Shown here piece after piece: positions 227-58,207 of a stretch of DNA of 64,000 nt (within the stretch, counting starts at the first letter, position 1; each line of letters starts with the position of its first letter). The stretch comes from a virus (Duplodnaviria; Heunggongvirae; Uroviricota; Caudoviricetes). The translations under genes and the position numbers were made by a program. Under the pieces are notes generated by a model. The model worked only from the letters and a program-made list of their open reading frames with translations. It had not been told where the DNA came from and made no database searches. Location of the stretch: the IMG/VR virus record IMGVR_UViG_3300017917_001353, positions 38,545-102,544 of that record; one strand, 5' to 3'.

Positions 227-288
227 TGATAATATTTATGGGGGTTGGTTTAACAACATTTCTATTATACTGGCTTTTTACCAATATG

Positions 289-4300: not shown

Positions 4301-4563
4301 GATTTACCTTTACTATAGTTAACACCACTGGCAGTGACTGTTACTTAAGAACACAGTCTAGTGAGTCTGAGCGTGCTAGACTAAAACTAGCAGGACGAAA
4401 CATTGACACTATTGATATAGGCATTCCGGATTCGGGTTCGGGATCAATGGTCACAGTGATGAAGATCAAGGACGGTTATGTTTCAACCGGTACTGGAGAG
4501 TCTGGTGATTATCCAGACATATGGATTGTCAGTGGTCCTGGCGATCTATACGACAATGATTAA
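1396..4563 (+). CDS. tail fibre protein with collagen-like repeat
   Basis: 1055 aa. The N-terminus MAQIRLRRDTYQNWFDANPVLAYGEPAYD...IKVGNGIDNWQDLPY resembles the conserved tail-fibre/hyaluronidase-type N-terminal domain. It is followed by GPQGDPGPAGPQGDPGPKGDKGDPGDVG (Gly-X-Y collagen triple-helix repeat) and a long beta-rich Gly/Thr/Asn-rich remainder. Confidence 0.6.
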   Translation: MAQIRLRRDTYQNWFDANPVLAYGEPAYDVTNNKIKVGNGIDNWQDLPYLTDVEANGIAGPQGDPGPAGPQGDPGPKGDKGDPGDVGTPSIPNTIRGFVNLVGARPNNSDELWFESVVVRGQHAYVLGGDYFTDNNNNEVKVYKFDLETGAQIWVKQITAGRAAQFNISVGEGMIVIDSIALAGVDYKVGEELVFYGWQINGNELLNKFFVVVDSIDETGGILTASIKPGYNVDGLSGTFTNLTANINGVPGDTVAISYDDFNNKVIVVQEYNPEIGDNVDSYWNWSNVYIMDPGTGTINETVTLTDDADIYPNSISTYDKEFGVAIVGQKLGEYTEFGNLTLLAGYNGYFDILKSNLDPEHYPGADQYNQYYDFWITGTGITSQENVDAVNQYNYITATTRQGSGATFSVTVAIPGEVYAAASPFSFGTNYRVGHKIKLSGADLGGTTPENDVIITVTSVDGDGGITGVSFEGTSNAGASPGAIYNGISGTNFNVGSGVEFAIYVDQTTGAFSYGGYYTAGLNYVPGDVLTIPGTAFANGASPANDATIVVNTVDGSGGISSVVNGAVTGTAPTDALRIIVNGVDFSVEGTWAMRQNLGGEAFIWTPTWSNAIGGPSGDRFYDVCWKADGTALYAVGNGVYEVPYTQALVVKFDATTGAVVWSKDIKFAEATTENREARAVCLVPGSTDIIVAGAWYNNNGSFNDEIILTRITDAGVAVWQKTYLVNNSGNNIDINYEISVKPVGDNILVTFEQSTPIHSRGYGFILVDSTGAVIRHRVLSADGNSNYNYYNTPTANFADIYTDAAGDHLVVAGYTYVPTDNYYNALLLRMPVDGLAPIGVNQPWSIGEHILNRFDVAVTAVTPEFDSFVPEEHVNTIVNVVDGRNYKTREPDGLPQVWTHTITDDSAGYLEFGDGSKQSFATNIIPQIPAANDYILTTQDSGKHIFFEHESGVVYIPHRDVRYFPVGFTFTIVNTTGSDCYLRTQSSESERARLKLAGRNIDTIDIGIPDSGSGSMVTVMKIKDGYVSTGTGESGDYPDIWIVSGPGDLYDND
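1570..1665 (+). repeat. collagen-like Gly-X-Y coding repeat (two near-identical 27 nt units)
   Basis: ggtccacaaggagatccaggtcc is repeated. Encodes GPQGDPGP twice. Confidence 0.7.
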
Positions 4564-36885: not shown

Positions 36886-37479
36886 ATGATAAATTATCAA
36901 GACTTCCTTAGTTGGGTAGATGTGGCAAAATTTGCCACAGCCTGTAACAACATCAGCAATGCACCTGGTACTCAAATTCTAAATGAGCACAGTAACCGTA
37001 TGCTCAAAGAAAAGTTTATCTTAGGAGCATTGGCAATCTGCAACCACAAGAAAAATATCACTTGGGTTGATACGATTGACTACGATTTAATTTTTACAGC
37101 GTGGAATGATGCTACTGTGGAAGTTAAGACTGGCGACGGTCCTATGTTTACCGAAAAGAAGGGCGACCTTAAAGAGCATGTGAGTGTTAAACTAAAAAAC
37201 ATTTACGAAAGTAAGGCTAACACACGCACTACATTGGACAAAACATTTGATCATTTGATGATTATCCAAAATAGCGGAACATTTGCTATCGGATTCGTTC
37301 CGTTTGATGTCGTGAGTCAGCATCTGGTGCAGTTAACTGATGGATGGAAAGCCAAGATTCCTGCCGATAAAGTTACTATTGTATATCAGCAGGATATGCG
37401 ACAACTACCTGTAGACTGGACTGTCGATTTGAACCCTAGAAATTGGGTACTTGACAAACTTACTGAAGCAGGGCTATAA
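36886..37479 (+). CDS. hypothetical protein
   Basis: 197 aa. Confidence 0.3.
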   Translation: MINYQDFLSWVDVAKFATACNNISNAPGTQILNEHSNRMLKEKFILGALAICNHKKNITWVDTIDYDLIFTAWNDATVEVKTGDGPMFTEKKGDLKEHVSVKLKNIYESKANTRTTLDKTFDHLMIIQNSGTFAIGFVPFDVVSQHLVQLTDGWKAKIPADKVTIVYQQDMRQLPVDWTVDLNPRNWVLDKLTEAGL

Positions 37480-37503
37480 TAAATATAGCAAAGGAATAAT
37501 ATT

Positions 37504-37572
37504 ATGGCATATCGAGCAAAACCAAGAAGCGTTAAAGCCGCAGTTCGTAGAGTACTACGTAGAAATAAGTAA
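37504..37572 (+). CDS. very small basic peptide (22 aa)
   Basis: RBS AAAGGA. Encodes MAYRAKPRSVKAAVRRVLRRNK. Confidence 0.2.
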   Translation: MAYRAKPRSVKAAVRRVLRRNK

Positions 37573-37627
37573 TGGACGACGATCTTAAAAGATTCGGAGT
37601 TGGATTTGTTACTGTTGTAATAATCAT

Positions 37628-37969
37628 GCTACTAGTCTTGTAAGTTATTGCTGTAAGAAGCAAAGAGAAAAGTGTTCTGGACGCGGGTTCGACTCCCGCC
37701 ATCTCCACCGAAGCACATTGCGGCACTAGGAGCGCATTTAAACTTAACCTAGTGTGGCTACTTAGGCAGTGTGTTTCGTTGGGGATGTACTGGTTTCGAC
37801 AGGGCAAAGAGTAACAGAGTGGACAGCACGGTAGGCGATGACCGTAAATCAAGCAAAACAAAATAGACGCAAACGACAACGTTTACGCATTAGCAGCCTA
37901 AACACTGCTTAGGGTAACTATACCTCGTAACAGAAAATAGTAATAGGCTCTTCGGAGCCTATTTTTTTG
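37628..37969 (+). ncRNA. ssrA: tmRNA (ssrA), circularly permuted two-piece type
   Basis: Acceptor-piece 3' end GGACGCGGGTTCGACTCCCGCCATCTCCACC (T-arm plus acceptor strand plus CC, 37679-37709) lies upstream of the coding-piece 5' end GGGGATGTACTGGTTTCGACAGG (37781). The GGGGATG/CATCTCC acceptor helix has the G3:U wobble (Ala identity). Tag ORF GCA AAC GAC AAC GTT TAC GCA TTA GCA GCC TAA (37869-37901) encodes ANDNVYALAA. Terminator hairpin aggctcttcggagcct+T7 at 37945-37969. No T-arm follows the tag, so it is not a one-piece gene. The 5' boundary of the acceptor piece is approximate. Confidence 0.6.
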
Positions 37970-38017
37970 ATAAATAGTTAAACAAACGGTATCTGTTTTT
38001 ACAATAAGGAGAAAGCA

Positions 38018-38317
38018 ATGTTTGTCTATAACTCTGTTCAAGAAAAAACTTCAAATTCCACTCCCTGGTTTAAGGACGTTAATCCTGCCGCTTACGAATC
38101 TATTTTAGAAACAGTACGTAATGCACCTGGCTTTGTTAGCGGTAATTGGGAAGTTGACCCATCTAACCCTAACAGGTTCTTAATCACACACTCGTGGAAC
38201 GACAAGGCATCTTGGAAAAATATGTCAAATTCTTTAAAGTCTTTATCTGCAATGCAGATGGGCGAGCTTTATAGAAAGAACAACGAAATCACCACTACAG
38301 TAAATCTAAGTGAGTAA
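38018..38317 (+). CDS. hypothetical small protein
   Basis: 99 aa. RBS AAGGAG. Confidence 0.3.
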   Translation: MFVYNSVQEKTSNSTPWFKDVNPAAYESILETVRNAPGFVSGNWEVDPSNPNRFLITHSWNDKASWKNMSNSLKSLSAMQMGELYRKNNEITTTVNLSE

Positions 38318-38327
38318 ATACTGAATT

Positions 38328-38876
38328 ATGAAATTCAGTATCCCTATTAGTATTCCCGGCTGGGAAAATATCGCAGAAAAATATTCATCTTGGGTCAAGT
38401 TTGGAGAAGAAGGAATGCACTCCAAACTTGTTCCTACAGAAGATTGGGAATTTATACTTTCAATTGTAAACCCGGCCATAAAGAAAATTTCTAGGGTAGA
38501 TCACAAAATCAACGGCTGCATAAACTTCTTCGTCCCTCCAGGAAAAACTAGGGGAATACACGTTGATTGGAGTAGCCCTGATTGGCCCACTAAAGGCAAT
38601 TGGGCGCTGAACATTCCTATTGCAAATTACGAAAACAGTGCAATGGAATGGTATGCAGGAGAATACACTCGAGAAATGTATCATCGCCCTGGGGGATATA
38701 TTTCAGATAAACTGACTTGGAAAACTAAACCAGTTCTTATCGAATCCTGCGTCATCAATCAGCCAACTTTAGTATATGTAGATATACCTCACGATGTTAG
38801 AAACAACGGCAATTCAACAAGAGTACTGATGAGCCTGCGTTTAAGTCCTAATATCCTAACATACATTCCTAAATAA
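38328..38876 (+). CDS. cupin/AspH-like oxygenase-like protein
   Basis: TRGIHVDWSSPDW (HxD) ... VDIPHDVRNNGNSTRVLMSLRL. Confidence 0.4.
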   Translation: MKFSIPISIPGWENIAEKYSSWVKFGEEGMHSKLVPTEDWEFILSIVNPAIKKISRVDHKINGCINFFVPPGKTRGIHVDWSSPDWPTKGNWALNIPIANYENSAMEWYAGEYTREMYHRPGGYISDKLTWKTKPVLIESCVINQPTLVYVDIPHDVRNNGNSTRVLMSLRLSPNILTYIPK

Positions 38877-38966
38877 TTTCTCCAAAACTGTAAACTAATT
38901 TCTTAGTTCGTGCGTTATATATGTACGTAGATAAAGTTTTCTACGCTAACCAAAAAGGAACTTAAA

Positions 38967-39161
38967 ATGAAATTAGTTGCAACCTTGATCGCCGGCTTAT
39001 TTGCCGTTACCGCTTTCGCCGCAGAACCTGCTAAGAAAGAAGCCCCTAAGGCCGAAGCCAAGCCCGCCGCAGCCGCTCCTGCACCCGCAGCCAGCGCACC
39101 TGCTGCTAAGCCTGCTGAAAAGAAAGCAGAGCCTGCCAAAAGCGAACCTGCTAAGAAGTAA
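38967..39161 (+). CDS. secreted Ala/Pro/Lys-rich low-complexity protein
   Basis: Signal peptide MKLVATLIAGLFAVTAFA, then AEPAKKEAPKAEAKPAAAAPAPAA... repeats. Confidence 0.4.
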   Translation: MKLVATLIAGLFAVTAFAAEPAKKEAPKAEAKPAAAAPAPAASAPAAKPAEKKAEPAKSEPAKK

Positions 39162-39402
39162 ACCGACTAGAATTGTCGTTCTTGAGCTCGAAGACAGCGA
39201 ACTCGAGATAGAATTAGAAGATTCTGTTCATAGAGGATATAGCCGCCCTAGAGTTCAAGACGACAATGAAGACGATCCAGATTATGTACCAGAACACATA
39301 CGCTGGAAGTTATTCTTAGCAAGGCAACTTGCATTATTAAAATACCGTGAAGTACACGGACAGAAAAGGGCCTAATAGCCCTTTTCTTGTATAAGTACTA
39401 TT

Positions 39403-40104
39403 ATGTTCGAATTAATTTATACGCTAATAGCGACACACATCACTATAATATGTGTTACAGTTTTTCTACACAGAGGACAGGCACACAAAGGAATTATATT
39501 CCACCCACTACTAAGCCACTTTATGAGATTTTGGCTTTGGCTTACAACAGGAATGGTTACTAAACAATGGGTAGCCATACATCGCAAACATCATAGATTC
39601 AGCGACGAACCCGGAGATCCGCATAGTCCGCATGTATTTGGATTTTGGAAAGTTTTATTCAAGGGTGCTGTACTTTACCACCAGGCTAGTAAAGACAAAG
39701 AGATGATAAATGCCTACGGAGTAGGAACCCCCGACGATTGGATAGAGAAACATATCTATACTCCTCACTCTAGATTAGGCATAGGCCTGTTACTACTTAT
39801 TAATATTCTATTATTCGGAGGATGGGGAGTATTGATATGGGGTATACAAATGATATGGATCCCGTTCTGGGCCGCAGGCGTTATTAACGGAGTAGGACAC
39901 TGGACCGGATATCGAAACGGCGAAACAAAGGATCACAGCCGTAATATAAGTCCTTGGGGGATCGTTATCGGCGGCGAAGAATTACATAACAATCATCACC
40001 TAGATCCTGCAAACCCCCGCCTTAGTAAACGATGGTTCGAATTTGATATAGGTTGGGCCTATATCAACGTTTTTAAATTTTTAAAATTAGCAAGTTTAAA
40101 ATAA
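39403..40104 (+). CDS. Delta9 fatty-acid desaturase (stearoyl-CoA/acyl-lipid desaturase family)
   Basis: HRGQAH (box 1), HRKHHRFSDEPGDPHSP (box 2), ELHNNHHLDP (box 3, like GWHNNHH). TM helices. Confidence 0.7.
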   Translation: MFELIYTLIATHITIICVTVFLHRGQAHKGIIFHPLLSHFMRFWLWLTTGMVTKQWVAIHRKHHRFSDEPGDPHSPHVFGFWKVLFKGAVLYHQASKDKEMINAYGVGTPDDWIEKHIYTPHSRLGIGLLLLINILLFGGWGVLIWGIQMIWIPFWAAGVINGVGHWTGYRNGETKDHSRNISPWGIVIGGEELHNNHHLDPANPRLSKRWFEFDIGWAYINVFKFLKLASLK

Positions 40105-40105
40105 C

Positions 40106-40819
40106 ATGAGTCATATTATTCGATTTAACCGTAATAATTTTCTCGACTATCTTACTGACAACTGGAAACCCATTAGTGACGAATTTTCTTCTTGGTTCCT
40201 TGAGCATGAAAAAACTCACGGTCCTAAGATCAAGGCTAATGTAGCAACTGCCCAGACACAGAGTTTACCGTTGTATACGGGAATGTTTAAATCAGTCGTT
40301 ATAAAAATTGAAGATACATTATTGCTAGAATCTGAAGCACGATCCCTCCACTGGGAAAATTTTGGAAAGACTGGAGCCGTTAAGACTCTGTATAGAGAAC
40401 AATGGTTAGAGCAGATGCCAACTCTACATCAGTGGGTAGTACAACATTATGATATAATAGGATCTGTACAATTTAATACATCAATGCCCGGAAGCCTGCT
40501 GCGCCATCATTTCGGAAACGATCCAAAGTACCTTAGACTGCATCTAACGTTAAAAGAAGCGCCCGGCTGTATGTTTAATATCGAAAACGAAATCTATGAA
40601 TGGAAGGACGGCGACCTTATAGGATTTGACGATGCAATAGTTTATCATGGTACTAAACACACGGGTACTGAAGAAAGAGTAATCCTTGTAATAGATGTAC
40701 TAAAATCTGCTGTTAAAGAACATGCAGTAGATTGGTCGATACGGGAAGGGCTAACTAAAAGAGACAGGTCTCCTGTAGCAATATATAATTGGTATCCGCA
40801 GAAACAAAGACTAACATGA
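40106..40819 (+). CDS. aspartyl/asparaginyl beta-hydroxylase (AspH/LpxO/OlsC)-family 2OG-Fe(II) oxygenase
   Basis: PGSLLRHHFGNDPKYLRLHLTLKEAPGCMFNIENEIYEWKDGDLIGFDDAIVYHGTKHTGTEERVILVIDV matches the Asp_Arg_Hydrox signature. Confidence 0.55.
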   Translation: MSHIIRFNRNNFLDYLTDNWKPISDEFSSWFLEHEKTHGPKIKANVATAQTQSLPLYTGMFKSVVIKIEDTLLLESEARSLHWENFGKTGAVKTLYREQWLEQMPTLHQWVVQHYDIIGSVQFNTSMPGSLLRHHFGNDPKYLRLHLTLKEAPGCMFNIENEIYEWKDGDLIGFDDAIVYHGTKHTGTEERVILVIDVLKSAVKEHAVDWSIREGLTKRDRSPVAIYNWYPQKQRLT

Positions 40820-41532
40820 AGAAAGAAAGCCAATATATCTATTTTAATCGAGGTAATCCTACGTTAGATTACCTAACTAATAACTGGGAAAAAATTAGAG
40901 ATGAATTTTTAGCGTGGTATCCTAATCATATGGGTCCCGGAGGTCTACAAGACCCCGAAGGCATAGGTAAAAAAGCAAACCATTACACGATAAATCAACC
41001 TGGAGCAAATTTAGTATATCACGGAAATTTTAAGTGTATGCCCACGTTCATTCGAGATACTGTACTTGACCCGCAAGAAGCAGATGATCTCTTTTGGCCT
41101 GACTTTCAAAAAGGCGGCCCTACGTATATACTCAGGAGAGAACGAATCAAACAGATGCCCGTGATGGGACAATGGATTATGGAGCATATAGATATTTTGG
41201 GATCAGTACAGTACAACATCAGTATGCCCGGAAGCCAATTAAATCATCATTGGGGATTAGACTACAACTATCTCAGACTACATTTAGTACTAGATTCTGC
41301 TCGGGGATGTTTATTTGATATTGAGGGCGAAAAGCACGAATGGGTTAACGGAGAACTTTTCGGGTTTGATGATAGTATGGTTTTGCATGGTACTAAACAC
41401 ACCGGAACTAAACCTAGATCGATAGTTTTGATCGATATCCTAAAAACTGCTGTTCGTCCGTATGCTAAATCATGGCCAATTAAACCTTGGGTAGATCGTA
41501 AGGATAGACCAAAAATCGAAGTCAAATGGTAA
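40789..41532 (+). CDS. AspH/LpxO/OlsC-family hydroxylase (tandem paralog)
   Basis: PGSQLNHHWGLDYNYLRLHLVLDSARGCLFDIEGEKHEWVNGELFGFDDSMVLHGTKHTGTKPRSIVLIDI. Confidence 0.55.
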   Translation: MVSAETKTNMKKESQYIYFNRGNPTLDYLTNNWEKIRDEFLAWYPNHMGPGGLQDPEGIGKKANHYTINQPGANLVYHGNFKCMPTFIRDTVLDPQEADDLFWPDFQKGGPTYILRRERIKQMPVMGQWIMEHIDILGSVQYNISMPGSQLNHHWGLDYNYLRLHLVLDSARGCLFDIEGEKHEWVNGELFGFDDSMVLHGTKHTGTKPRSIVLIDILKTAVRPYAKSWPIKPWVDRKDRPKIEVKW

Positions 41533-41585
41533 TTTGGTTAAAATAGTTCTTGCTCTTGATTTAGTTTTACCATATAATAGTTACA

Positions 41586-41921
41586 TTGACACGCCGAAAG
41601 GAGAATTTCATGTCTGTCGATAAAACTATTGAATCCATTAAAGAATTTTGCACCAAAAACTCCGGTGATGCGCTAGGCCAAACCTGGCACGGTAATAAGG
41701 CAACTTATCACTGGAATTCTGGAAAACTTGCGGCCGACGGTACACTTAACGGTGTAGTACGAAAGTTAGCAGGCATTGATGCTAGCGGTGCTCAAATTTG
41801 GGTTGTTGCAGGATCTTTCAAAATTAGCCCTAGCGGACAAATTTTGCGATTCACTGGGCTTCCGAAGAAACTTCAAACCCAAGCATTTACTTCTACCGTA
41901 TCCACTACTGTAACTGCCTAA
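41586..41921 (+). CDS. hypothetical protein
   Basis: 111 aa. RBS AAAGGAG. Confidence 0.3.
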   Translation: MTRRKENFMSVDKTIESIKEFCTKNSGDALGQTWHGNKATYHWNSGKLAADGTLNGVVRKLAGIDASGAQIWVVAGSFKISPSGQILRFTGLPKKLQTQAFTSTVSTTVTA

Positions 41922-42013
41922 TGCGCTGGTTAGCGGTATTAGTTTTACTTTGGTACGGCCACTTGCTCTGGGCCCTATTCTTTGCTATAATGTTTATTAT
42001 AACGGAGTAATCT

Positions 42014-42409
42014 ATGACTATGCATCTTGCACATCCTGCCCTAAGTCTTGGCGGCAAGAAAAAAGGTAAACAAAAGTTCCGCAATGCCGAAGAGGCTCGC
42101 AAAAGTCGCGAGCTCGATGCTTCCTGGAAAGAACTCCAAAAGAAGTGGGGTGTTGAACAAGAAGAACGCAAACGCAAACGCGGTCTGTCGGCCCAGCCTC
42201 TTATTACCCAATCCTCAGTATATCGTCGTGACACGGGTCCTCGAATCCCTAGTCTCAACGGCGGTCTCGATATGACTCCTGCGGTGCTAAAACCGGCACC
42301 AGTTTACACAGGCACCAAGATCAAAGGTATTGGTACTATGCACAAATCAAACGCTGTGCCAATCTTCAGCGATGAAGAGGCACAAGATATTGCAAGGATG
42401 CGTCGATGA
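42014..42409 (+). CDS. hypothetical basic protein
   Basis: 131 aa. Confidence 0.3.
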   Translation: MTMHLAHPALSLGGKKKGKQKFRNAEEARKSRELDASWKELQKKWGVEQEERKRKRGLSAQPLITQSSVYRRDTGPRIPSLNGGLDMTPAVLKPAPVYTGTKIKGIGTMHKSNAVPIFSDEEAQDIARMRR

Positions 42410-42900
42410 AAATTCAATCTATTTTTGAAACAAAAGTTTATCAAGAATTTAAAAAAAATCGAGGTGAAAATAGAACACAGTTGATGCGCCGTAATCCTAC
42501 AAAAAAAGAAATTCAAGAGTGGGAATGGCGTCAAGAAGAACTCGAAGACATTAAAAATATTTTAAAATTTCTCGGAGATAACCTTCGCCGTGCGGCGAAT
42601 AGAGGTTCTCTTTCTCAAAAAATCGAAGTCGATCTAGATTATGTGTATAATGTAGGTGCTAGTCAGGATTTTTTTTGCGCCCTTACAGGAGAAGAACTAG
42701 AATTTACTAGAGGCGGCCAGATTTGGTTAGGCAAGTGGTGTAACCCTTATAGTTGTACTATTGATCGAATTGATAGCACTAAAGGGTATGTTGAAGGCAA
42801 TATTCAATTAATTACCTGGAAGGCCAACTGCCTTAAACAGCATCTAGACAACGAGGAATTTATTGATTTTTGTATAGATGTTGCTCGTTGGAACAAATAA
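42406..42900 (+). CDS. HNH homing endonuclease
   Basis: CALTGEELEF...CTIDRIDSTKGYVEGNIQLITWKANCLKQ gives an H-N-(N/H) motif with flanking Cys. Confidence 0.5.
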   Translation: MKIQSIFETKVYQEFKKNRGENRTQLMRRNPTKKEIQEWEWRQEELEDIKNILKFLGDNLRRAANRGSLSQKIEVDLDYVYNVGASQDFFCALTGEELEFTRGGQIWLGKWCNPYSCTIDRIDSTKGYVEGNIQLITWKANCLKQHLDNEEFIDFCIDVARWNK

Positions 42901-42909
42901 ATAATTCTT

Positions 42910-44283
42910 ATGCCAGTAACATTTAACGAAAAATTTTTAGCCTATCTTGCACTTATTAGCGGTCTAGTTATATCTGTTGTAGCAGAATACTACAGCATTT
43001 TAGGACTAACCGCTATTTTTGCCGCCGCGACTATTCCTGTTATCATAATGGGTATCGCTCTAGGCGTTGGCAAGATTACAGCCACCTTATGGCTTAAACA
43101 AAACTGGAACATTGCTCATTGGAGTATTAGGGCATACCTAGTTACTGCTATTGCAGTACTCATGCTAATCACCAGCATGGGTATTTTTGGTTTCTTAAGC
43201 AAAGCACACAGTGAGCAAAGTTTAGTTTCCGGCGATGCTCAAAGCAAGATTGCAGTCTATGATGAAAAGATTAAAACATCAAAAGAGAACATTGAAACTA
43301 ACCGCAAGGCTCTTAAACAAATGGACGAGGCTGTTGATCAAGTCATGGGCCGATCAACAGATGAAAAAGGTGCTGACAAAGCGGTTGCGTTACGCAGAGC
43401 ACAGCAAAAAGAACGATCACGCCTCTTATCTGAAATCGAAGCCGAACAGAAAAAAATTGCTAGCCTTAGTGAAGAACGGGCACCAATAGCCGCAGAAGTT
43501 CGTAAAATTGAGGCAGAGGTTGGACCAATCAAGTATATTGCACAGTTTGTCTACGGAGAGACAGAACAGTCTATTCTGGAAAAGGCTGTTACGTGGGTAA
43601 TTATTATTCTGATTGTAGTTTTCGATCCTCTGGCTTTGATCTTGTTGTTGGCAAGTCAAATCAGTTTCCAAAATTTCAGAGAACGAGAGCGCTGGGACTT
43701 TGAACGTAATCTAGAAGAAGCCGCAGATGCCTTTAATGATGTATTTGCTGACGAACTGGCAAACACTGACAAAACTCCAGACGAGTTAATGGGTGTGAAA
43801 CCCGATGCTTGGGTCGCAGACGTAGGCGAGAAGCCTACTGCCGAGGAGCTCAAAGACGATCTGTTTCCTACCTACGAAGAGATTACGGAGGGTGACAGCC
43901 CAGAGAAGGAATCTGATGTAGTCAGCACAGCCACTGTCACAACATCTACAGTTACGCAAACTGTAGTAGAGGCTGAAATGCCTGTAGTACCTCCTGCAAA
44001 GGAACCTGTTCGAACAGTTATTACAGGTAACAGGCCTACACAGGTAACCAAGGTCTTTAGATCACCAAAGGCGCTGACTACAATTACAGAAGAAATTGTG
44101 CAAGAGGCATTGGAAGAAAAAATTGAACCTACAGTTATCCTTGATAAAGATACCAACTATGTAATTATAGATGGTCAACGCTATCACAGAAATAGTGTGC
44201 CCGCTGTTCTTAGGACTTATGTCCAAAATGAAGAACAAAAAGAAAGTGGTATTTGGAGCAGGGTAAAGAAGGATGAAGAGTAA
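42910..44283 (+). CDS. membrane protein with N-terminal TM helices and coiled coil
   Basis: 457 aa. About 4 predicted TM segments, a charged coiled-coil middle, and a Thr/Val-rich C-terminus. Confidence 0.35.
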   Translation: MPVTFNEKFLAYLALISGLVISVVAEYYSILGLTAIFAAATIPVIIMGIALGVGKITATLWLKQNWNIAHWSIRAYLVTAIAVLMLITSMGIFGFLSKAHSEQSLVSGDAQSKIAVYDEKIKTSKENIETNRKALKQMDEAVDQVMGRSTDEKGADKAVALRRAQQKERSRLLSEIEAEQKKIASLSEERAPIAAEVRKIEAEVGPIKYIAQFVYGETEQSILEKAVTWVIIILIVVFDPLALILLLASQISFQNFRERERWDFERNLEEAADAFNDVFADELANTDKTPDELMGVKPDAWVADVGEKPTAEELKDDLFPTYEEITEGDSPEKESDVVSTATVTTSTVTQTVVEAEMPVVPPAKEPVRTVITGNRPTQVTKVFRSPKALTTITEEIVQEALEEKIEPTVILDKDTNYVIIDGQRYHRNSVPAVLRTYVQNEEQKESGIWSRVKKDEE

Positions 44284-44677
44284 AATAACTCTTATAACAC
44301 CGCCGGATATCTTTGAAAACGCAAACCCTAGCATCTTGTTCTGTCATCTTAGTGATGAAGAGCAAGATGCCGTAAGTAAGTGGTTATCAAAGGCCGATAT
44401 TTCAAACAACATCAATCTCTATGTATATACTGGCGAACCAGCACCGGTTTGGTTTTTGTATGCACTCAACCGATGCGAGTATAAGTATATTAACATTAAC
44501 AGTGTAAACTTACTCACACAGGCTCTTAGTGGTTATGTTCTTAGTAGAAATAATGTTTACTACAGAACAGACGATACAAACTTAGCCGCAATATACAGTC
44601 ATATAAATTCTAATCGAGTAAACACTGTTGAAGAGTTTTTAGAGAGTATTTTAGGTGCCAAAACAAGTGAATCATAA
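44273..44677 (+). CDS. hypothetical protein (upstream partner of clpX)
   Basis: 134 aa. Overlaps the clpX start. Confidence 0.3.
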   Translation: MKSKITLITPPDIFENANPSILFCHLSDEEQDAVSKWLSKADISNNINLYVYTGEPAPVWFLYALNRCEYKYININSVNLLTQALSGYVLSRNNVYYRTDDTNLAAIYSHINSNRVNTVEEFLESILGAKTSES

Positions 44678-45884
44678 TTGCGATTTTTGCGGCAAAAGCA
44701 AAGAAGACGTAGAAAAACTAATAGTCGGCGAACATGCCGCAATTTGTAATGATTGTATAGATTTATGTGTTAGCATTTTAGATGACGAGAAAGTAAAAAA
44801 TTTACCCTCTGATAAAAAGACACTGAATCCTAGTCTAATCAAAGACTACCTTGACGAGTATATTACAGGCCAGGAAGATGCAAAGATAAGCCTTAGTGTT
44901 GCAGTTAGCCAGCACTTTAAGCGTATCAACAATCCCCACAAAGATATTAGTCTAGAAAAGACCAACGTACTATTGTTAGGTCCTACTGGCTGCGGCAAAA
45001 CTGCTCTGGCTAGAAAAATTGCAGAGTATCTAGATCTGCCGTTTGCTATCTGCGATGCTACTAGCATCACTGAAGCAGGCTATGTCGGCGACGATGTTGA
45101 AAGCATTCTGCTACGATTAATTAATGAAGCAGATGGGGACATGGAAAAGGCCAGCCGGGGCATTGTCTACATCGACGAAATTGACAAGATTGCCCGCAAA
45201 GGCGAAAACGTCAGTTTAACTAGAGATGTCAGTGGCGAAGGTGTTCAACAGGCCTTACTCAAAATGGTAGAAGGTAGCATTATGCGTGTTCCATATACCG
45301 GAAAAAGAAAGCACCCCGGATCGGACATGCAGGAAATCGACACCAGCAAGATTCTATTCATTTGCGGTGGTGCGTTTGTAGGACTAGACAAGATTGTACA
45401 GCGTCGAGTAGAAAACAGAGGAATCGGCTTCAATTCTAAACTACCTGATCCTACAAAGAACTCTGAATTTTATCAACAGGTAACACCTAAAGATATCATT
45501 CAGTTTGGATTTATTCCAGAGTTCATTGGACGATTTGGTATTATTACCAGTGTCGAAGAACTTACAGAAGAACAACTAGTAAAGATCCTAGTTGAAAACA
45601 AAAACAGTCTAGTTAGGCAATACAAGTATATGTTTGAACTAGACGGCATTGATCTACATTTTGAAGATAGTGCGTTAAGAGAAGTTGCCCGCAGAGCAAA
45701 AGAATTGAAAACAAATGCTCGTGGTTTAAAAAATATTCTCGAAAAGACACTGCTACCTTATCAATTTGATGCAGTTAATTTATTAGAGCGCGGTTTAACG
45801 AAAATTATTATAAGTAAAGATACCGTAGCCGGAAATCCGGCTGTATTGATATTTGATAAAAAAGTAAAAAATGAGCAAAAATAA
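44655..45884 (+). CDS. clpX: ATP-dependent Clp protease ATP-binding subunit ClpX
   Basis: N-terminal C4 zinc domain (CDFCGK...ICNDCIDLC), Walker A GPTGCGKT, GYVG pore loop, IGF ClpP-docking loop (NRGIGFNS), and sensor/arginine motifs. 409 aa. Confidence 0.9.
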   Translation: MPKQVNHNCDFCGKSKEDVEKLIVGEHAAICNDCIDLCVSILDDEKVKNLPSDKKTLNPSLIKDYLDEYITGQEDAKISLSVAVSQHFKRINNPHKDISLEKTNVLLLGPTGCGKTALARKIAEYLDLPFAICDATSITEAGYVGDDVESILLRLINEADGDMEKASRGIVYIDEIDKIARKGENVSLTRDVSGEGVQQALLKMVEGSIMRVPYTGKRKHPGSDMQEIDTSKILFICGGAFVGLDKIVQRRVENRGIGFNSKLPDPTKNSEFYQQVTPKDIIQFGFIPEFIGRFGIITSVEELTEEQLVKILVENKNSLVRQYKYMFELDGIDLHFEDSALREVARRAKELKTNARGLKNILEKTLLPYQFDAVNLLERGLTKIIISKDTVAGNPAVLIFDKKVKNEQK

Positions 45885-46110
45885 AGAAAGGGGTAGGGGC
45901 ATTAAAGTTATCGTCGGCGAGAATATGCCAATTAACGTAGCCCTGCGTAAGTTCAAACAAAAAGTTGACGATTCGGGCAAACTTGAAGATGTCAAAAAAC
46001 GTATGTTCTACGAAAAGCCAACAACTGAGCGTAAGAGAAAAAAGGGTGCGGCCCGTGCTCGTTGGCTAAAACGAGTAGAAGAACAACAACTACCTAAAAA
46101 ACTATTTTAA
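45871..46110 (+). CDS. rpsU: 30S ribosomal protein bS21
   Basis: IKVIVGENMPINVALRKFKQKV...KKRMFYEKPTTERKRKKGAARARWLKR matches bS21. Confidence 0.8.
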   Translation: MSKNKERGRGIKVIVGENMPINVALRKFKQKVDDSGKLEDVKKRMFYEKPTTERKRKKGAARARWLKRVEEQQLPKKLF

Positions 46111-46718
46111 TTCACACCTTGGGATTTTAAAAATCCCACCAGCATATACCTAGGTTCAAGAGCCCACGGAGTTACAGGAGTAACAAAGTGGGGTACCTGA
46201 CCATCTCGGTGATTCATTATCACTAATTGGTTAAATTGTGGTATAGTAGGGTCGACTTTTCCATCTTCCCCGATACTCATTAAAATGCCGCCCCAATCCC
46301 ATTTCCAGTTTCGTGTAAGATACCATATAAATCCCACATCTGAAATGTATGCATCTCGGTGTACTCTAAAATGGCCACCTTCTATCATTTTATAACAGCG
46401 TAGATCAGCATCAGCAACTTGTTTACCAGTTGTTTCTTCTACTAGAGGTTTGATATACGAGTAATAGCACTCTCTAATAACTGCGTTGCTTTCTAGATAG
46501 TTAGATCTGTGAAATTCCGAACGATAGACTTCATCCTGGTCTGGAACAAAGGGAATATCGTCGGTAAATTCTCTACCGTAGTATCCTCTGCGTTCTTGGG
46601 TAATACGATCATAGTCTGCATTTTTAAATTCATTTCGGGCAGACATTGCTATGTCTACCGGAACTGCATCTTGAATGACTCTTAATGGTTGGAGCATTGT
46701 GATCCTTTTATCTACCAA
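46107..46718 (-). CDS. 2OG-Fe(II) oxygenase (PhyH/prolyl-hydroxylase-like)
   Basis: MIEGGHFRVHRDAY (HxD) ... QVPHFVTPV (distal His). 203 aa. Confidence 0.45.
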   Translation of the reverse strand: MVDKRITMLQPLRVIQDAVPVDIAMSARNEFKNADYDRITQERRGYYGREFTDDIPFVPDQDEVYRSEFHRSNYLESNAVIRECYYSYIKPLVEETTGKQVADADLRCYKMIEGGHFRVHRDAYISDVGFIWYLTRNWKWDWGGILMSIGEDGKVDPTIPQFNQLVIMNHRDGQVPHFVTPVTPWALEPRYMLVGFLKSQGVN

Positions 46719-46780
46719 TATATTTATTGCGGTTGACTTTACTCAAAAACTAAAGTACAATAACATACGAAAGGCATATT

Positions 46781-47311
46781 ATGGCAAAACATTTGATGAT
46801 TGATATGGAGACTATGGCAGTCTCTCCCAGGGCAGTAGTTCTAAGTCTTGGCGCAGTACATTTTAATCCCTGGGGCAACGGTTACGGAGAAAAACTATAT
46901 TTCCGGATTAACCTCGATGACCAAGATGCTCTGGGACGCGAAATTGATCCTAATACGATCGACTGGTGGAGCAAGCAAGATCCTGTGATTATGGAAGAAG
47001 CCTTCAGTCCGGACAATCGTATTAGCCTTGTAGATGCTATGGACCAATTCCATAAGTTTGCCTGGGGTTGTGATGCATTTTGGAGTCACGGTGCTACATT
47101 TGACTTGATGATTATTCAAGATATCTACAGTCAACTAGGTAAGCCCTTGCCCTGGAACTATTGGCAACTGCGTGATACTCGTACACTGTTTGACCTAGGT
47201 TATGATCCGGACATGCCACAGGGTAGCAAACATGATGCTCTGCAGGATGCTATCCGACAGGCCGTGGGTGTACAGAACATCTATACAAAATTAAAGATTA
47301 GACCAAAATGA
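46781..47311 (+). CDS. DEDDh 3'-5' exonuclease (DnaQ-like)
   Basis: IDMETMA (exo I D.E), and C-terminal GSKHDALQDAIRQ (exo III H....D). Promoter TTGACT-17-TACAAT upstream. Confidence 0.5.
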   Translation: MAKHLMIDMETMAVSPRAVVLSLGAVHFNPWGNGYGEKLYFRINLDDQDALGREIDPNTIDWWSKQDPVIMEEAFSPDNRISLVDAMDQFHKFAWGCDAFWSHGATFDLMIIQDIYSQLGKPLPWNYWQLRDTRTLFDLGYDPDMPQGSKHDALQDAIRQAVGVQNIYTKLKIRPK

Positions 47312-47589
47312 TTTCGTTCCACTTTACTCTACGTAATCCCTGGTCAAACACATTTAAGAACTTGTGGTGTAGGGCCTACAAAACTCCATTCGATAATAAG
47401 TTTATCGAACTGGAAATTTATAAGGACTTCACACTGGTATCCTTTATGTTCAATTGGAGTATTCGTCAGAGTCATGCCGGACTAGACTTAGAACTAGGAC
47501 TACTAGGTTACTGTATTCATTTTAATTTTTATGACAGTCGTCATTGGAGTTATGAATTTGATCGGTATTTTAATAAGGGTGAAGAATAA
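47308..47589 (+). CDS. hypothetical protein
   Basis: 93 aa. Confidence 0.3.
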   Translation: MISFHFTLRNPWSNTFKNLWCRAYKTPFDNKFIELEIYKDFTLVSFMFNWSIRQSHAGLDLELGLLGYCIHFNFYDSRHWSYEFDRYFNKGEE

Positions 47590-47813
47590 TGACTAGATAT
47601 TACTGTGTTAGAACTGACGAAGAAGGATATGGTTCTGAACCTTGTGATATTCTACTCGATCATGGACTCAAGAACCCGGATTTTAGGACCTATGTTCTCC
47701 GAAAAGAAAACTGGTCAGGGCGTTCCATTTGTCAAGTGTTAAACGATGCATATGAGGCAGGACGAGCAGAAGCCATGCGGGATCTTCGACGGTTTATCGG
47801 AGCAGAAAAATAA
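47589..47813 (+). CDS. hypothetical protein
   Basis: 74 aa. Confidence 0.3.
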   Translation: MTRYYCVRTDEEGYGSEPCDILLDHGLKNPDFRTYVLRKENWSGRSICQVLNDAYEAGRAEAMRDLRRFIGAEK

Positions 47814-48058
47814 TGCCTAACTACGCAGAATACTTTGAGAAGCACAGACCAAAGCCGGTATGGCATATAGGAGACCGTGTATCTGGCAAGTGGAACAAGA
47901 TTCCATTCATTGGTAGTGTAGGCAATGATAATATGGTCAACGAAACGGAAGGCCCTCGAGTAAGCGTACATCTCGACCTACCTATCAAATATAAAGACAA
48001 AGTCTATACCGTGGTCTTTGTCAAACAGAAAGACATTAAACGGTTAGTTGATTATTGA
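47813..48058 (+). CDS. hypothetical protein
   Basis: 81 aa. Confidence 0.3.
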   Translation: MPNYAEYFEKHRPKPVWHIGDRVSGKWNKIPFIGSVGNDNMVNETEGPRVSVHLDLPIKYKDKVYTVVFVKQKDIKRLVDY

Positions 48059-50686: not shown

Positions 50687-50759
50687 GCGCTAGTCCGCGT
50701 GGAGCGGCAGGAGCCTCTAAAACTCCCAACTGTGGGTTCGATTCCCATCTAGCGCACCA
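50687..50759 (+). tRNA. tRNA with anticodon CUA (amber-suppressor type), non-canonical D-arm
   Basis: Acceptor gcgctag/ctagcgc (7 bp), discriminator A, encoded CCA. T-arm gtggg-TTCGATT-cccat. Anticodon stem ggagc/actcc with a C.A closing pair and loop C-U-CUA-A-A. Only 1 nt between the acceptor and D stems. D-stem ccgc/gcgg with a 5-nt D-loop. 73 nt total. Confidence 0.6.
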
Positions 50760-54762: not shown

Positions 54763-54966
54763 ATGTCAAAAGAAATTCGATCAGTTGAACAAATTGTTCA
54801 ATCTCTAATAAATCTACGCAATGAAATGGTTGCTTGCGGACGATCCGAAATAGCATTTAAAATCAACAGTTGCCTATTCAGCGAATATCCACATGCGCCT
54901 CATTCGGCAGCATGGCGCGAAAAATATGCCGCAGAAAATTGGATCAAAGGAGCGCAAAATGCCTAA
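54763..54966 (+). CDS. hypothetical protein
   Basis: 67 aa. RBS AAAGGAG. Confidence 0.3.
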   Translation: MSKEIRSVEQIVQSLINLRNEMVACGRSEIAFKINSCLFSEYPHAPHSAAWREKYAAENWIKGAQNA

Positions 54967-55978
54967 GCCTTATGGAACACTGGTCCTCGTCGGACGCTTT
55001 CAACCTCTGCACAATGCACACCTCGAGATCATCAAGCGATGCACTGCACTCACCGATCAATTGGTAATCATTGTAGGCAGTGCTAACCAACCTCGTACCT
55101 ACAAGAATCCATTTACGTTCGAAGAGCGCAAGAAGATGATCCTTGATGCTAGTCGCAACCTCAATCTGCGTGTCTATGTCGAACCTAACATTGACACCAT
55201 CTACAACGATCAAGCATGGGCAGTCCGTGTACAGGGGATTCACAGCAAGTATCGAATCCTCGGAACTAAGGACGGTATTATTGGGCACAAGAAAGACGAA
55301 TCTAGTTTCTACCTCGACATGTTCCCTCAATGGGAGTTTGTTGATGTAGAAGAAATTGAGCCCCTTGGTGCTACAGATATTCGAGAACTCTACTTCAAAC
55401 GTGATGCGAACATGCGCTTCATCCAGGGAGTTGTTCCTGAAACTGCATTTAACTTCTTAGAAGAATTTAAAAAGACTGACGCCTACGAGCAGGTTATTCG
55501 TGAGCGCGAGTTTATTGAGGCCTACAAAAAGCAATACGCAAGTCTGCCTTATCCGCCGATTTTCGTTACTGCTGACGCTGTAGTAATTCAAAGCGGCCAT
55601 GTGCTCATGATCAAGCGCCGCAGTGAGCCAGGAAAAGGTCTTTGGGCACTGCCCGGAGGTTTCGTTAACGCCAACACAGATAAGAGTGTAGAAGATGCCG
55701 CAATTAGAGAACTTAGAGAAGAAACAGGAATTAAAGTCCCTGCTCCTGTACTGCGTGGTAGTATTGTTCGCAGTAGGGTGTTTGATGCTGTTAACAGGAG
55801 TGCTAGGGGGCGTACCATTACCCACGCCTACTATATACAACTGCCCGACGGTGATCTGCCTAAAGTAAAAGGACAGGACGATGCCGAGAAGGCTCGCTGG
55901 GTTCCTATCGCCGAAGTTCGTAGTGAAGATTGTTTCGAAGATCACTACGAGATCATTCAACATTTCTTAGGAGCATAA
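54959..55978 (+). CDS. nadM: bifunctional NMN adenylyltransferase / Nudix hydrolase (NadM-Nudix)
   Basis: GTLVLVGRFQPLHNAH (NMNAT (H/T)xGH-type motif). C-terminal Nudix box GGFVNANTDKSVEDAAIRELREETGI. Confidence 0.8.
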   Translation: MPKPYGTLVLVGRFQPLHNAHLEIIKRCTALTDQLVIIVGSANQPRTYKNPFTFEERKKMILDASRNLNLRVYVEPNIDTIYNDQAWAVRVQGIHSKYRILGTKDGIIGHKKDESSFYLDMFPQWEFVDVEEIEPLGATDIRELYFKRDANMRFIQGVVPETAFNFLEEFKKTDAYEQVIREREFIEAYKKQYASLPYPPIFVTADAVVIQSGHVLMIKRRSEPGKGLWALPGGFVNANTDKSVEDAAIRELREETGIKVPAPVLRGSIVRSRVFDAVNRSARGRTITHAYYIQLPDGDLPKVKGQDDAEKARWVPIAEVRSEDCFEDHYEIIQHFLGA

Positions 55979-55979
55979 A

Positions 55980-56255
55980 ATGACTCATTATACAAACACA
56001 AATAATCCTATCGACTTTCCAAAAATGGAATATATTTGGGAAGCCGAACTAGATGGCAAATATCATTGTTCAGTGGTACGTATTAACAAGCGTGGAGGAA
56101 ATCTGCGTCTAGTTGATACTACTACTGGTCGTGAACTGCTTAATCAAGATGTGGGCCTGCTCTACGGAGCACAGTTTGGTCCGGACGTAGAAGACGTTGC
56201 CAAATGGCAAAGTATCTGCGCCGCTGTTGTAGACAGGGACCAAAAAAATGCTTAA
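55980..56255 (+). CDS. hypothetical protein
   Basis: 91 aa. Confidence 0.3.
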   Translation: MTHYTNTNNPIDFPKMEYIWEAELDGKYHCSVVRINKRGGNLRLVDTTTGRELLNQDVGLLYGAQFGPDVEDVAKWQSICAAVVDRDQKNA

Positions 56256-56733
56256 ACATACAAAAGGCGATCTGTTGAAAATGGCTGAACAAGGCCAGTT
56301 CAATATTATCATGCACGGTTGCAACTGCCATAACACAATGGGCAGTGGTATTGCTCGGCAGATTCGTGAGCAGTATCCTCAGGCCTATGAAGCAGACAGT
56401 CTTACCAAGCCTGGCGACAAAACTAAGCTCGGTACAATTACTGTATCTTTGGCTAACAATCAAGTCGGTGGAAAATTTGTAATTGTTAATGCTTATACAC
56501 AGTACGATTTTAATCGAGGCGGTGTTACAAATGATGTATTCGAATACGATGCATTCCAAAACATCCTGAACGGTTTTGCTAGAGATGCAGGACCTAGTAT
56601 GCAAATTGGTCTTCCATATATTGGTATGGGCCTTGCAGGCGGCGACAAAGAAAGAATTTTGGCAATGATTGAAGACTTTGCCAATAAGGTTTCGGCAAAA
56701 GGTGGCAGTGTCACTTTAGTCGAATTTGGTTGA
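56248..56733 (+). CDS. macro-domain (ADP-ribose binding/processing) protein
   Basis: FNIIMHGCNCHNTMGSGIARQIREQYP resembles the macro-domain N(A)AN...GGGV..AI motif. 161 aa. Confidence 0.5.
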   Translation: MLKHTKGDLLKMAEQGQFNIIMHGCNCHNTMGSGIARQIREQYPQAYEADSLTKPGDKTKLGTITVSLANNQVGGKFVIVNAYTQYDFNRGGVTNDVFEYDAFQNILNGFARDAGPSMQIGLPYIGMGLAGGDKERILAMIEDFANKVSAKGGSVTLVEFG

Positions 56734-56812: not shown

Positions 56813-58207
56813 ATGAAACTCGCAAAAAACATTCTATTGAACACTGACTCGTACAAAGTGAGTATGTTCAAACAATATCCTGCAGGAACTACAGGTGTAT
56901 ATTCGTATATCGAAAGTCGGGGTGGACGCTACGATAGAACTGTATTCTTCGGACTACAGGCTTTTATCAAAGAATACCTATGCGTACCTATCACGCAGTC
57001 GGACATTGACATTGCTGATGAGATCCTTACCGCACACGGTGAGCCTTTCAACCGAGCAGGATGGCAGTACATTCTTGATAAGCACAATGGATACCTCCCT
57101 GTGGTTATCCGAGCAGTTCCAGAAGGCACCGTGGTTCCTGTCAAAAATGTCCTTGCCACAATCGAAAACACTGATCCAGAATGCTTCTGGCTAACCACTT
57201 GGCTAGAAACTGCTCTGCTTCGTGCTATTTGGTATCCTACTACTGTAGCAACTCAAAGTTGGACTATCCGCCAACTGATCCTAGACTATTTGGAGAAAAC
57301 TGGTGATCCAACTCTTATTGATTTTAAACTTCACGACTTTGGTGCTCGTGGTGTTAGCAGTCTTGAATCTGCTAGTATCGGCGGCGCGGCGCACTTGGTT
57401 AACTTTATGGGCACTGATACTATCTCTGGTATTCTGTTTGCCCGTGAGTATTACGGCGCTGGTGTTGCTGGTTTCTCAATCCCTGCCGCAGAACACAGCA
57501 CCATCACAAGTTGGGGACGAGATAGAGAAGTTGATGCATACCGCAATATGCTCACCAATTTCGCTAAGCCAGGAAGCATTGTGGCTATTGTGTCAGATTC
57601 CTATGACATCTACAACGCCGCCGGAAGACTCTGGGGAGAAGAACTTAGGCAACAGGTTATTGACTCGGGCGCCACTGTTGTAATTCGTCCCGACAGTGGT
57701 GATCCTGTAGAAGTTAACCGCAACCTAATCCAACTGCTGGACAGCAAGTTTGGGAGTACTGTAAATGCCAAAGGCTTCAAAGTCCTCAACAACGTCCGCC
57801 TCATCCAAGGCGACGGAGTCAACGAACTTACTATCCGTTCTATTCTTGGTGCTTTTATGGCCCTTGGCTACAGTGCCGATAATATCGCTTTTGGTATGGG
57901 CGGCGCCCTGCTACAGCAAGTGGATCGCGACACTCAAAAGTTTGCTATGAAGTGTTCGTCTGCACAGGTCAACGGTGAATGGATTGATGTGCAAAAAGAT
58001 CCTGCTACTGACCCTGGCAAAAAGAGTAAGGCAGGTCGTGTTGTTCTTTGGGAATCCGGCGGCGAATATCGTTCGGGTGTTGAACAACCAAAAGGGTGGA
58101 CTGACCGTGGCACGATGTGGAACGAAGTTCTCGAAACTGTTTATTGTGACGGAGAACTCCTTAACGAAATCACATTCGAGCAAGTTCGGGCTAACGCAAA
58201 GGCCTAA
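56813..58207 (+). CDS. nadV: nicotinamide phosphoribosyltransferase (Nampt/NadV)
   Basis: 464 aa. LLNTDSYKVSMFKQYP N-terminus and conserved Nampt blocks (FGARGVSS, GTDT, DSYD). Confidence 0.85.
   Translation: MKLAKNILLNTDSYKVSMFKQYPAGTTGVYSYIESRGGRYDRTVFFGLQAFIKEYLCVPITQSDIDIADEILTAHGEPFNRAGWQYILDKHNGYLPVVIRAVPEGTVVPVKNVLATIENTDPECFWLTTWLETALLRAIWYPTTVATQSWTIRQLILDYLEKTGDPTLIDFKLHDFGARGVSSLESASIGGAAHLVNFMGTDTISGILFAREYYGAGVAGFSIPAAEHSTITSWGRDREVDAYRNMLTNFAKPGSIVAIVSDSYDIYNAAGRLWGEELRQQVIDSGATVVIRPDSGDPVEVNRNLIQLLDSKFGSTVNAKGFKVLNNVRLIQGDGVNELTIRSILGAFMALGYSADNIAFGMGGALLQQVDRDTQKFAMKCSSAQVNGEWIDVQKDPATDPGKKSKAGRVVLWESGGEYRSGVEQPKGWTDRGTMWNEVLETVYCDGELLNEITFEQVRANAKA

Follow-up and report, generated by a model that had tools for sequence, protein, structure and literature searches.

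Which ClpP does a phage ClpX work with when no clpP gene accompanies it? The question is raised by a 64 kb stretch of tailed-phage DNA (the window; positions 38,545 to 102,544 of IMG/VR record IMGVR_UViG_3300017917_001353), which carries a clpX gene overlapping a gene for ribosomal protein bS21 and, upstream on the same strand, a permuted two-piece transfer-messenger RNA (tmRNA). The window belongs to a source contig of 102,544 bp and to a genome that is probably larger than 300 kb; among the loci that we compared, L141 comes from the same genome, its positions 1117-2960 being 100% identical to positions 1-1844 of the window. A sequence-only reading had joined these features into one strategy, in which the phage tmRNA tags stalled or host proteins, the phage ClpX feeds them to host ClpP, and phage bS21 modifies the ribosomes, with a tRNA of anticodon CUA and a candidate ClpX adaptor (ORF134) as further members. 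Every feature that it had named was recovered in place or very nearly so. The complete ClpX, the module without ClpP, the ssrA-type tag and the gene overlap stood as proposed, but the CUA tRNA and the adaptor did not, and both genes are better regarded as neighbours than as demonstrable members of the pathway. The best explanation of the locus as a whole, to which we assign a probability of about 0.5, is a turnover cassette whose ClpX would cap a ClpP made from a gene outside it.

ClpX, bS21 and the conserved cassette

The genes of the cassette are the following.

42910-44283, + strand: p457, membrane protein and first gene of the cassette (hydropathy; weak DUF4407 match only)
44273-44677, + strand: ORF134, 134 aa, overlapping p457 by 11 nt and clpX by 11-23 nt
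44655-45884, + strand: clpX, 409 aa, full-length ClpX (Pfam, NCBIfam, PDB and E. coli comparison)
45871-46110, + strand: rpsU-like gene for bS21, 79 aa (PF01165, TIGR00030)
46781-47311, + strand: Rv2179c-like 3'-5' exoribonuclease (PF16473, 4.2e-37; PHROG exonuclease, 2.2e-48)

The window ClpX matched the Pfam families zf-C4_ClpX (PF06689, 8.6e-14), AAA_2 (3.9e-30) and ClpB_D2-small (9.7e-6), the first of which places a zinc-binding C4 N-domain at residues 8-43. It also exceeded the cut-offs of the NCBIfam ClpX equivalogs NF003745 (529.2 bits, cut-off 359) and TIGR00382 (494.8 bits, cut-off 370.75). Against solved structures in the PDB the top matches were all ClpX (E 8.9e-125), the alignment with E. 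coli ClpX in this set spanning residues 15 to 415, and comparison with E. coli ClpX gave 48% identity across residues 15-420. Four zinc cysteines and the motifs GPTGCGKT, GYVG, DEID, RKH and GIGF can be read in the protein. Judged by family models and motifs, it is a genuine full-length ClpX, and the earlier claim of a complete protein with a zinc N-domain, a GYVG pore loop and an IGF loop was borne out. An alternative start, the GTG at 44667 chosen by the metagenome gene caller, would give 405 aa, and both starts overlap ORF134. One terminator-like hairpin (45825-45844), located within the coding sequence of clpX at its 3' end and followed by a weak T run, was not taken as functional.

A near-identity DNA search of deposited phages gave no match, ORF134 and a 253-aa protein of the window led only to 3 kb contigs of run SRR5831666, and no ClpX among deposited phages exceeds 54% identity to the window ClpX. 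We use the name clade A for the IMG/VR loci whose ClpX is 68-81% identical to it, which number at least 56; a broader IMG/VR scan added at least about 30 further clade A loci, with ClpX identity of at least 66%. Clade A contigs in IMG/VR reach 355 kb, and contigs with the cassette reach 374 kb overall. Large clade A contigs include JGI 3300045447 Ga0492743_0000002 (373,898 bp), ENA ERZ28594332 KRAE22-1 scaffold_2 (373,671 bp), IMGVR_UViG_3300032236_000747 (354,680 bp) and IMGVR_UViG_3300037882_003354 (322,512 bp), and the clade A genome of about 374 kb is represented by two independent assemblies. Across clade A, the CxxC...CxxC pattern of the N-domain was kept, and Walker A/B, the arginine finger, sensor II, the pore-1 loop GYVG, the pore-2 loop and RKH, all present in the window ClpX, were conserved.

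The ClpP-docking loop was evaluated as a tripeptide of the form [LIV]-G-[FL], which in the window ClpX lies in GIGF. Among 65 distinct clade A ClpX sequences the tripeptide was IGF in 34 and VGF in 31, with no other variant, while its flanks varied from protein to protein (for example RSVGFHA, RGIGFNS and KGVGFGS); in the same set GYVG was kept in 65/65 and RKH in 59/65. An invariant [I/V]GF amid varying flanks is what one would expect of a protein that still has to touch a ClpP ring, suggesting that clade A ClpX probably retains docking to some ClpP. The loop does not tell whose ClpP that would be.

The bS21 product matched PF01165 (2.6e-16; 59.5 bits, cut-off 27) and TIGR00030 (57.6 bits, cut-off 28.95), and the ATG of rpsU sits 14 nt inside the end of clpX. 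The proposed coupling of the bS21 gene behind clpX was thus confirmed as a gene overlap, and the pairing is kept in about 50 relatives. The order p457, ORF134, ClpX, bS21 and Rv2179c-like exoribonuclease recurs with the same order and strand in clade A; the cassette was found on more than 60 viral contigs, and its synteny was followed in about 50-60 independent contigs. Homologues were counted in clade A loci for p457 (50-54), ORF134 (54-58), S21 (47-50) and the exoribonuclease (48-51). By hydropathy, p457 has a number of hydrophobic segments at its N-terminus, then a charged, coiled-coil-like part and one further hydrophobic segment, and its distant homologues are found in pelagimyophage Mosig and XacN1-type jumbo phages, the nearest cultured ones. 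Clade A is related to T4-like pelagimyophages and XacN1-type jumbo phages. A search for the T4-type late promoter TATAAATA showed no enrichment and none near the cassette. We read the cassette as an accessory "translation and protein-turnover" set of large aquatic tailed phages.

Several genes in or around the cassette vary among the relatives. A third lineage, represented by L330, L334, L338, L341, L345, L347, L350, L352, L353, L382 and other loci, carries p457, an ORF134-like gene, S21, exonuclease, Hsp20 and ClpS and has no ClpX, which makes ClpX look like an optional addition to an older p457-S21 module. An endonuclease VII/HNH-like gene (42406-42900, PHROG) lies between a conserved gene (42014-42409) and p457. 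Homologues of it are confined to 2-4 of about 60 relatives, which suggests a mobile homing endonuclease that has inserted here. A gene for a 2OG-Fe(II) oxygenase (46107-46718, - strand) has a stop that overlaps the S21 stop on the opposite strand, and the same S21-adjacent position is taken by such a gene in a few relatives (L009, L054, L057 and L385). A GroES-like Cpn10 gene stands 3.5 kb downstream of S21 in L385 (15360-15656), and the relative of about 374 kb has a RuBisCO large-subunit-like gene (PF00016; L058 5470-6708, - strand) 4 kb upstream of the cassette.

The two-piece tmRNA and the CUA tRNA

The tmRNA and its control elements are located upstream of the cassette.

about 37598-37970, + strand: permuted two-piece tmRNA (ARAGORN 37618-37992, flag tmRNA*; Rfam 37598-37965)
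37451-37480, + strand: putative sigma-70-type promoter of consensus sequence upstream of the tmRNA (TTGACA, 18 nt, TATAAT)
37942-37963, + strand: terminator hairpin of the tmRNA, followed by a T run to 37970

Two Rfam models matched the tmRNA over their full length, RF01850 beta_tmRNA with 150.9 bits (gathering 84) and RF04321 tmRNA_permuted with 144.5 (gathering 47). The acceptor piece, which ends ...CAUCUCC-ACC at about 37700-37709, stands upstream of the coding piece, which opens with GGGGAUG at about 37781 after an intervening segment of about 70 nt. Read from the sequence, the acceptor pairing GGGGAUG/CAUCUCC would give the G3:U70 alanine identity pair, and the T loop is GGGUUCGACUCCC. 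The tag frame at 37869-37901 (GCA...GCC UAA) encodes ANDNVYALAA followed by a stop, so that the appended tag, including the alanine borne by the tmRNA, would be AANDNVYALAA, which is two positions off the E. coli tag AANDENYALAA and keeps ALAA. The sequence-only reading had reported a tmRNA whose ssrA tag ends in YALAA, and this part held; the permuted two-piece nature, the promoter and the terminator had escaped it. Its further claim that the tag is the degron recognised by ClpX fits an ssrA-type tag and the presence of the RKH and GYVG loops in the phage protein.

The promoter matches the hexamers at 12/12 positions and is the sole perfect site within 37000-48000. Together with the terminator, it makes the tmRNA look like an independent unit transcribed by host RNA polymerase. 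A tblastn search with E. coli SmpB found no SmpB partner in the window or in clade A loci; host SmpB would be required, as with other phage tmRNAs. A permuted tmRNA on the same strand, 3.5-9.9 kb upstream of ClpX, was found in 15 of the 46 clade A loci with enough flank, and nearly all clade A tags finish in [L/M/V/I]AA. A beta- or gammaproteobacterial host is hinted at by the type of tag and by the top-scoring Rfam model, but phage tmRNAs are known not to follow the host (PMC9004378).

The CUA tRNA that had been counted with this set is a single feature downstream of the cassette.

50687-50759, + strand: tRNA with anticodon CUA, amber suppressor type, CCA end encoded (ARAGORN/Rfam)

Such a tRNA lies within 10 kb of ClpX in only one of 56 relatives (L045, 14529-14603), and its membership of the set was not supported; we see no tie between it and ClpX. 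TAG closes only 6 of the 104 candidate ORFs in the window, several of those doubtful, and with stops so rare a suppressor would be tolerable.

ClpP and the partner of the phage ClpX

A tblastn search of the window with E. coli ClpP gave a best E-value of 0.62. Phage ClpP, ClpS and Hsp20 from relatives, as well as E. coli SmpB and ClpS, gave no match in the window when used as queries, and SspB was not found in it either. Among the genes between 36.9 and 63 kb, Pfam found no protease, only auxiliary metabolic genes; the families in this part were a desaturase, two Asp/Arg hydroxylases, AhpC, CMD, a PstS-like protein, TerC, NMNAT-NUDIX, Macro, NAMPT and an AAA ATPase.

Clade B (for example L300, L207 and L142), a sister lineage within this phage supergroup, encodes a ClpP near its ClpX. 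The order in L300 is p492 (the p457 homologue), ClpX, Hsp20, ClpS, two small genes, p513 and ClpP; in L207, L208 and L142, ClpP is followed by homologues of the 727-aa, 144-aa and 321-aa genes of the window. ClpX-S21 lies at 44.6-46.1 kb of the window and the 727-aa, 144-aa and 321-aa genes lie at 59.5-63.1 kb, so that the interval holding ClpP in the sister lineage is fully covered, and no ClpP was found in it. In the 374 kb relative, all called genes from ClpX to the 727-aa homologue were listed with their Pfam families, and none was CLP_protease. No ClpP was found from -10 to +19 kb around ClpX (re-centred on ClpS) in clade A loci, the 322 kb contig included, and in two clade A loci with p513, the gene directly before ClpP in the sister lineage, nothing ClpP-like stood behind p513. 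Among the matches listed, about 85 clade A ClpX contigs and about 200 ClpP contigs had no name in common, and comparison with the listed ClpS contigs gave no overlap either, which we take as weak evidence of absence. The clade A module carries no ClpP; the statement that the window holds no ClpP was correct, and it extends to the matching position in relatives.

Several candidates for a clade A ClpP were rejected. The ClpP loci L196, L199 and L214 share with the window a gene (74-77%) that is a fatty-acid desaturase, the rest of these contigs not being collinear with the window. L142, which had appeared to be a close relative with ClpP, has one 85% segment, and its order of Hsp20, ClpS, ClpP and the 727-aa gene is that of the sister lineage. 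A 26,990 bp contig on which ORF134 and ClpP seemed to co-occur turned out to be a different contig, of the sister lineage.

From the established gene content, motifs and conservation, we infer all the functional steps of the proposed cassette. A hexamer of the phage ClpX would dock on ClpP encoded outside the cassette, most likely that of the host, with a phage ClpP from another part of the genome as the less likely partner, and would degrade proteins with ssrA-type C-termini and probably other substrates taken up via the zinc-binding N-domain. The two-piece tmRNA would be transcribed from its own host-type promoter and would use host SmpB, alanyl-tRNA synthetase and EF-Tu to rescue ribosomes stalled on broken messages, appending (A)ANDNVYALAA with its LAA-COOH degron for ClpX. 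The bS21 protein, translationally coupled to ClpX, may enter the host 30S subunit, as is cited for the protein of pelagiphage HTVC008M. A more specific version, in which clade A lost or never had ClpP, selection still maintains the docking loop of its ClpX, and this ClpX routinely caps host ClpP as a hybrid phage-host protease, is put forward tentatively, at rather less than even odds.

A number of observations weigh against a cassette that depends on an outside ClpP. The window is 64 kb of a much larger genome, and ClpP may sit outside it; the phage ClpP family in IMG/VR is large, with some members on contigs of 260-370 kb, and ClpX lies 4-5 kb upstream of ClpP in 37 of the 80 listed ClpP loci. 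Only a third of clade A loci have the tmRNA within 10 kb of ClpX, and a tmRNA is also found beside a ClpX-less cassette (L351) and, in Mosig, without any ClpX. With tmRNAs lacking ClpX and ClpX mostly lacking a nearby tmRNA, there is no obligatory linkage between them; the linkage is loose, and probably ancestral to the wider group. Among the matches listed, identity is 72-90% between one phage ClpP and another and 63-67% between the phage ClpPs and that of E. coli, and many of them derive from samples that also yielded clade A contigs; the sister-lineage ClpX proteins near them are only 46-54% identical to the window ClpX. A bona fide ClpP in the sister lineage indicates that this phage group readily encodes its own. 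Clade A could accordingly be an ordinary phage ClpXP system with its ClpP outside the window and no host protease commandeered, a reading that also draws on Atu_ph07, where ClpX and a ClpP subunit are encoded at distant positions (PMC6102473), and on the conserved IGF loop, which suits any ClpP partner. We nevertheless consider it rather unlikely, as we do a ClpP elsewhere in the genome, because the window and several clade A contigs have no ClpP at the matching position, the ClpX and ClpP contig names are disjoint even for contigs above 200 kb among the matches listed, and there the ORF134-bearing and ClpP-bearing clusters share no contig.

Two further explanations concern how ClpX would act. 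E. coli ClpX can work without ClpP, for instance in remodelling the Mu transpososome, and the phage protein may likewise be an unfoldase that remodels on its own, in virion assembly, disassembly of replication complexes or translocation of unfolded proteins. Other chaperones, Hsp20 and Cpn10, are encoded nearby in relatives, and translocase or assembly roles were proposed by Iyer et al. for jumbo-phage ClpX/ClpA (PMC7824862). A docking tripeptide kept in all 65 sequences despite variable neighbours would be hard to explain if docking were dispensable, and we regard this possibility as improbable. Still less probable is that ORF134 is a dedicated ClpX adaptor or regulator, perhaps acting like CpdR, the single-domain receiver that primes Caulobacter ClpX. 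Its gene overlaps clpX and is kept in 54 of 56 clade A loci, but ORF134-like genes (25-31% identity) also stand between p457 and S21 in many ClpX-less loci, in the sister lineage ClpX lies directly behind p457 with ORF134 absent, and no sequence similarity of ORF134 to SspB or ClpS was found. Over the lineages as a whole, ORF134 and ClpX are not inherited together. The protein has 249 homologues with 26 invariant columns, including D12, E15, E55, K71, H110, N112 and several Tyr/Trp, and gave no match in Pfam, PHROGs or NCBIfam. Its AlphaFold2 model is confident (pLDDT 89.6) and shows a flavodoxin-like alpha/beta domain. The structure most similar to it is 4mcj, a putative nucleoside deoxyribosyltransferase, while receiver domains share with it the generic fold only; no likeness to the known adaptors SspB, ClpS, RssB or CpdR was found in sequence or, beyond that generic fold, in structure. 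The predicted fold is therefore nucleoside 2-deoxyribosyltransferase-like, and ORF134 is probably not ClpX-specific. The occurrence of each gene without the other and this predicted fold leave the adaptor claim unsupported.

If the orphan ClpX does use host ClpP, the virus would redirect a bacterial protease by giving only the substrate-selecting motor, with a viral tmRNA close by to provide the degradation tag that fits it. For a hybrid protease of this kind, if real, the phage tmRNA would supply tags and bS21 would be co-translated with the ClpX, and the evolution of such hijacking could be studied by comparison with the ClpP-bearing sister lineage. Even if the system is an ordinary ClpXP, the ClpX-bS21 pair is widespread and strongly conserved in large aquatic phages, and the combinations of ClpP, ClpS and Hsp20 across lineages are natural variants for probing phage proteostasis genes.

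Other genes were noticed in the same genome. A bacterial-type IF-1 gene (72 aa, PF01176) lies at L141 326-544, 572-790 nt upstream of window position 1, and is a further translation gene of this phage; the HNH endonuclease gene after it extends into the window (1-227, - strand). A 1055-aa protein (1396-4563) combines an N-terminal Mtd_N (major tropism determinant) domain, collagen-like repeats and a beta-propeller-like region, and the next gene encodes a Laminin_G_3 protein; both are likely tail fibre or receptor-binding proteins. Two adjoining genes (40106-40819 and 40789-41532) belong to the Asp/Arg beta-hydroxylase family. An NMNAT-NUDIX fusion (54893-55978), a Macro-domain protein (56248-56733) and NAMPT (56813-58207) form an NAD+ salvage set, which resembles the NadV/NatV-type pathway by which phages are reported to rebuild NAD+ against NAD-depleting defences.

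Comparison with known systems

Phage ClpX, bS21, two-piece tmRNA and bS21-Clp-Hsp20 neighbourhoods have all been published previously, and the window is a well-documented further example rather than a new type of system. Jumbo phages carry ClpX, ClpA, ClpP and ClpS in patchy sets (PMC7824862, PMC6102473, PMC11242549), and a lone phage Clp component working with a host partner is a published idea, put forward for ClpS (PMC7824862). The ClpX proteins of the cultured jumbo phages Atu_ph07 (gp2), Sinorhizobium Phosso, AP-J-162, Bacillus phage G (gp258) and Lak are, like that of the window, full-length with a zinc finger; they are 45-54% identical to it, and none is close (<60%). Their very large genomes also hold translation genes such as those for S21, IF-3 and tRNAs, and AP-J-162 has a tmRNA (PMC11242549, PMC6102473). 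Unlike the window, Atu_ph07 also encodes ClpA, ClpB, ClpS and a ClpP subunit (PMC6102473), and its clpX adjoins topoisomerase genes, not rpsU.

The bS21 proteins of aquatic phages (Pelagibacter HTVC008M and the phages of freshwater Bacteroidetes in Chen et al. 2022) belong to the same Pfam/TIGR family as that of the window, and PMC9723584 cites the HTVC008M protein as one that becomes part of E. coli ribosomes. In Chen et al., the genes most often seen at a distance of up to ten genes from phage bS21 include Hsp20, two families of Clp protease and an exonuclease (PMC9723584), which matches the neighbourhood in the window and its relatives. In the clades of Chen et al. the bS21 gene lies on the reverse strand in the structural block, whereas in the window it overlaps clpX in an accessory region. 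Permuted tmRNAs in T4-like aquatic phages, as here, are known from Methylophilales phage Melnitz and Pelagibacter phage Mosig (PMC9004378), and in Mosig a p457 homologue stands 3 kb from the tmRNA. These two phages differ from the window in their genomes of about 141 kb and in having no ClpX. A glutamine riboswitch is reported for their tmRNA, but at Rfam gathering scores the window gave no such match; the best Rfam model for the window tmRNA is the betaproteobacterial two-piece one, and its 10-residue tag of the ANDxxYALAA type is unlike theirs.

The nearest comparison is with clade B, which shares a p457-like gene, ClpX, S21 and/or Hsp20-ClpS, and then the 727-aa and 321-aa homologues, and differs in a ClpX of 46-54% identity, in the absence of ORF134 and in a ClpP 4-5 kb downstream of ClpX. 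Compared with the ClpXP-SsrA system of E. coli, the window has the same ClpX architecture and recognition loops and a tag with terminal ALAA; it differs in lacking ClpP, SmpB and SspB, in its two-piece tmRNA and in having no clpP-clpX operon. Beyond the published systems, the analysis adds a negative outcome for the idea of ORF134 as an adaptor, the extent and tightness of the overlapping ClpX-bS21 pair, a split between lineages whose module contains ClpP and lineages whose module lacks it, and a docking loop that is conserved in the lineage whose module carries no ClpP.

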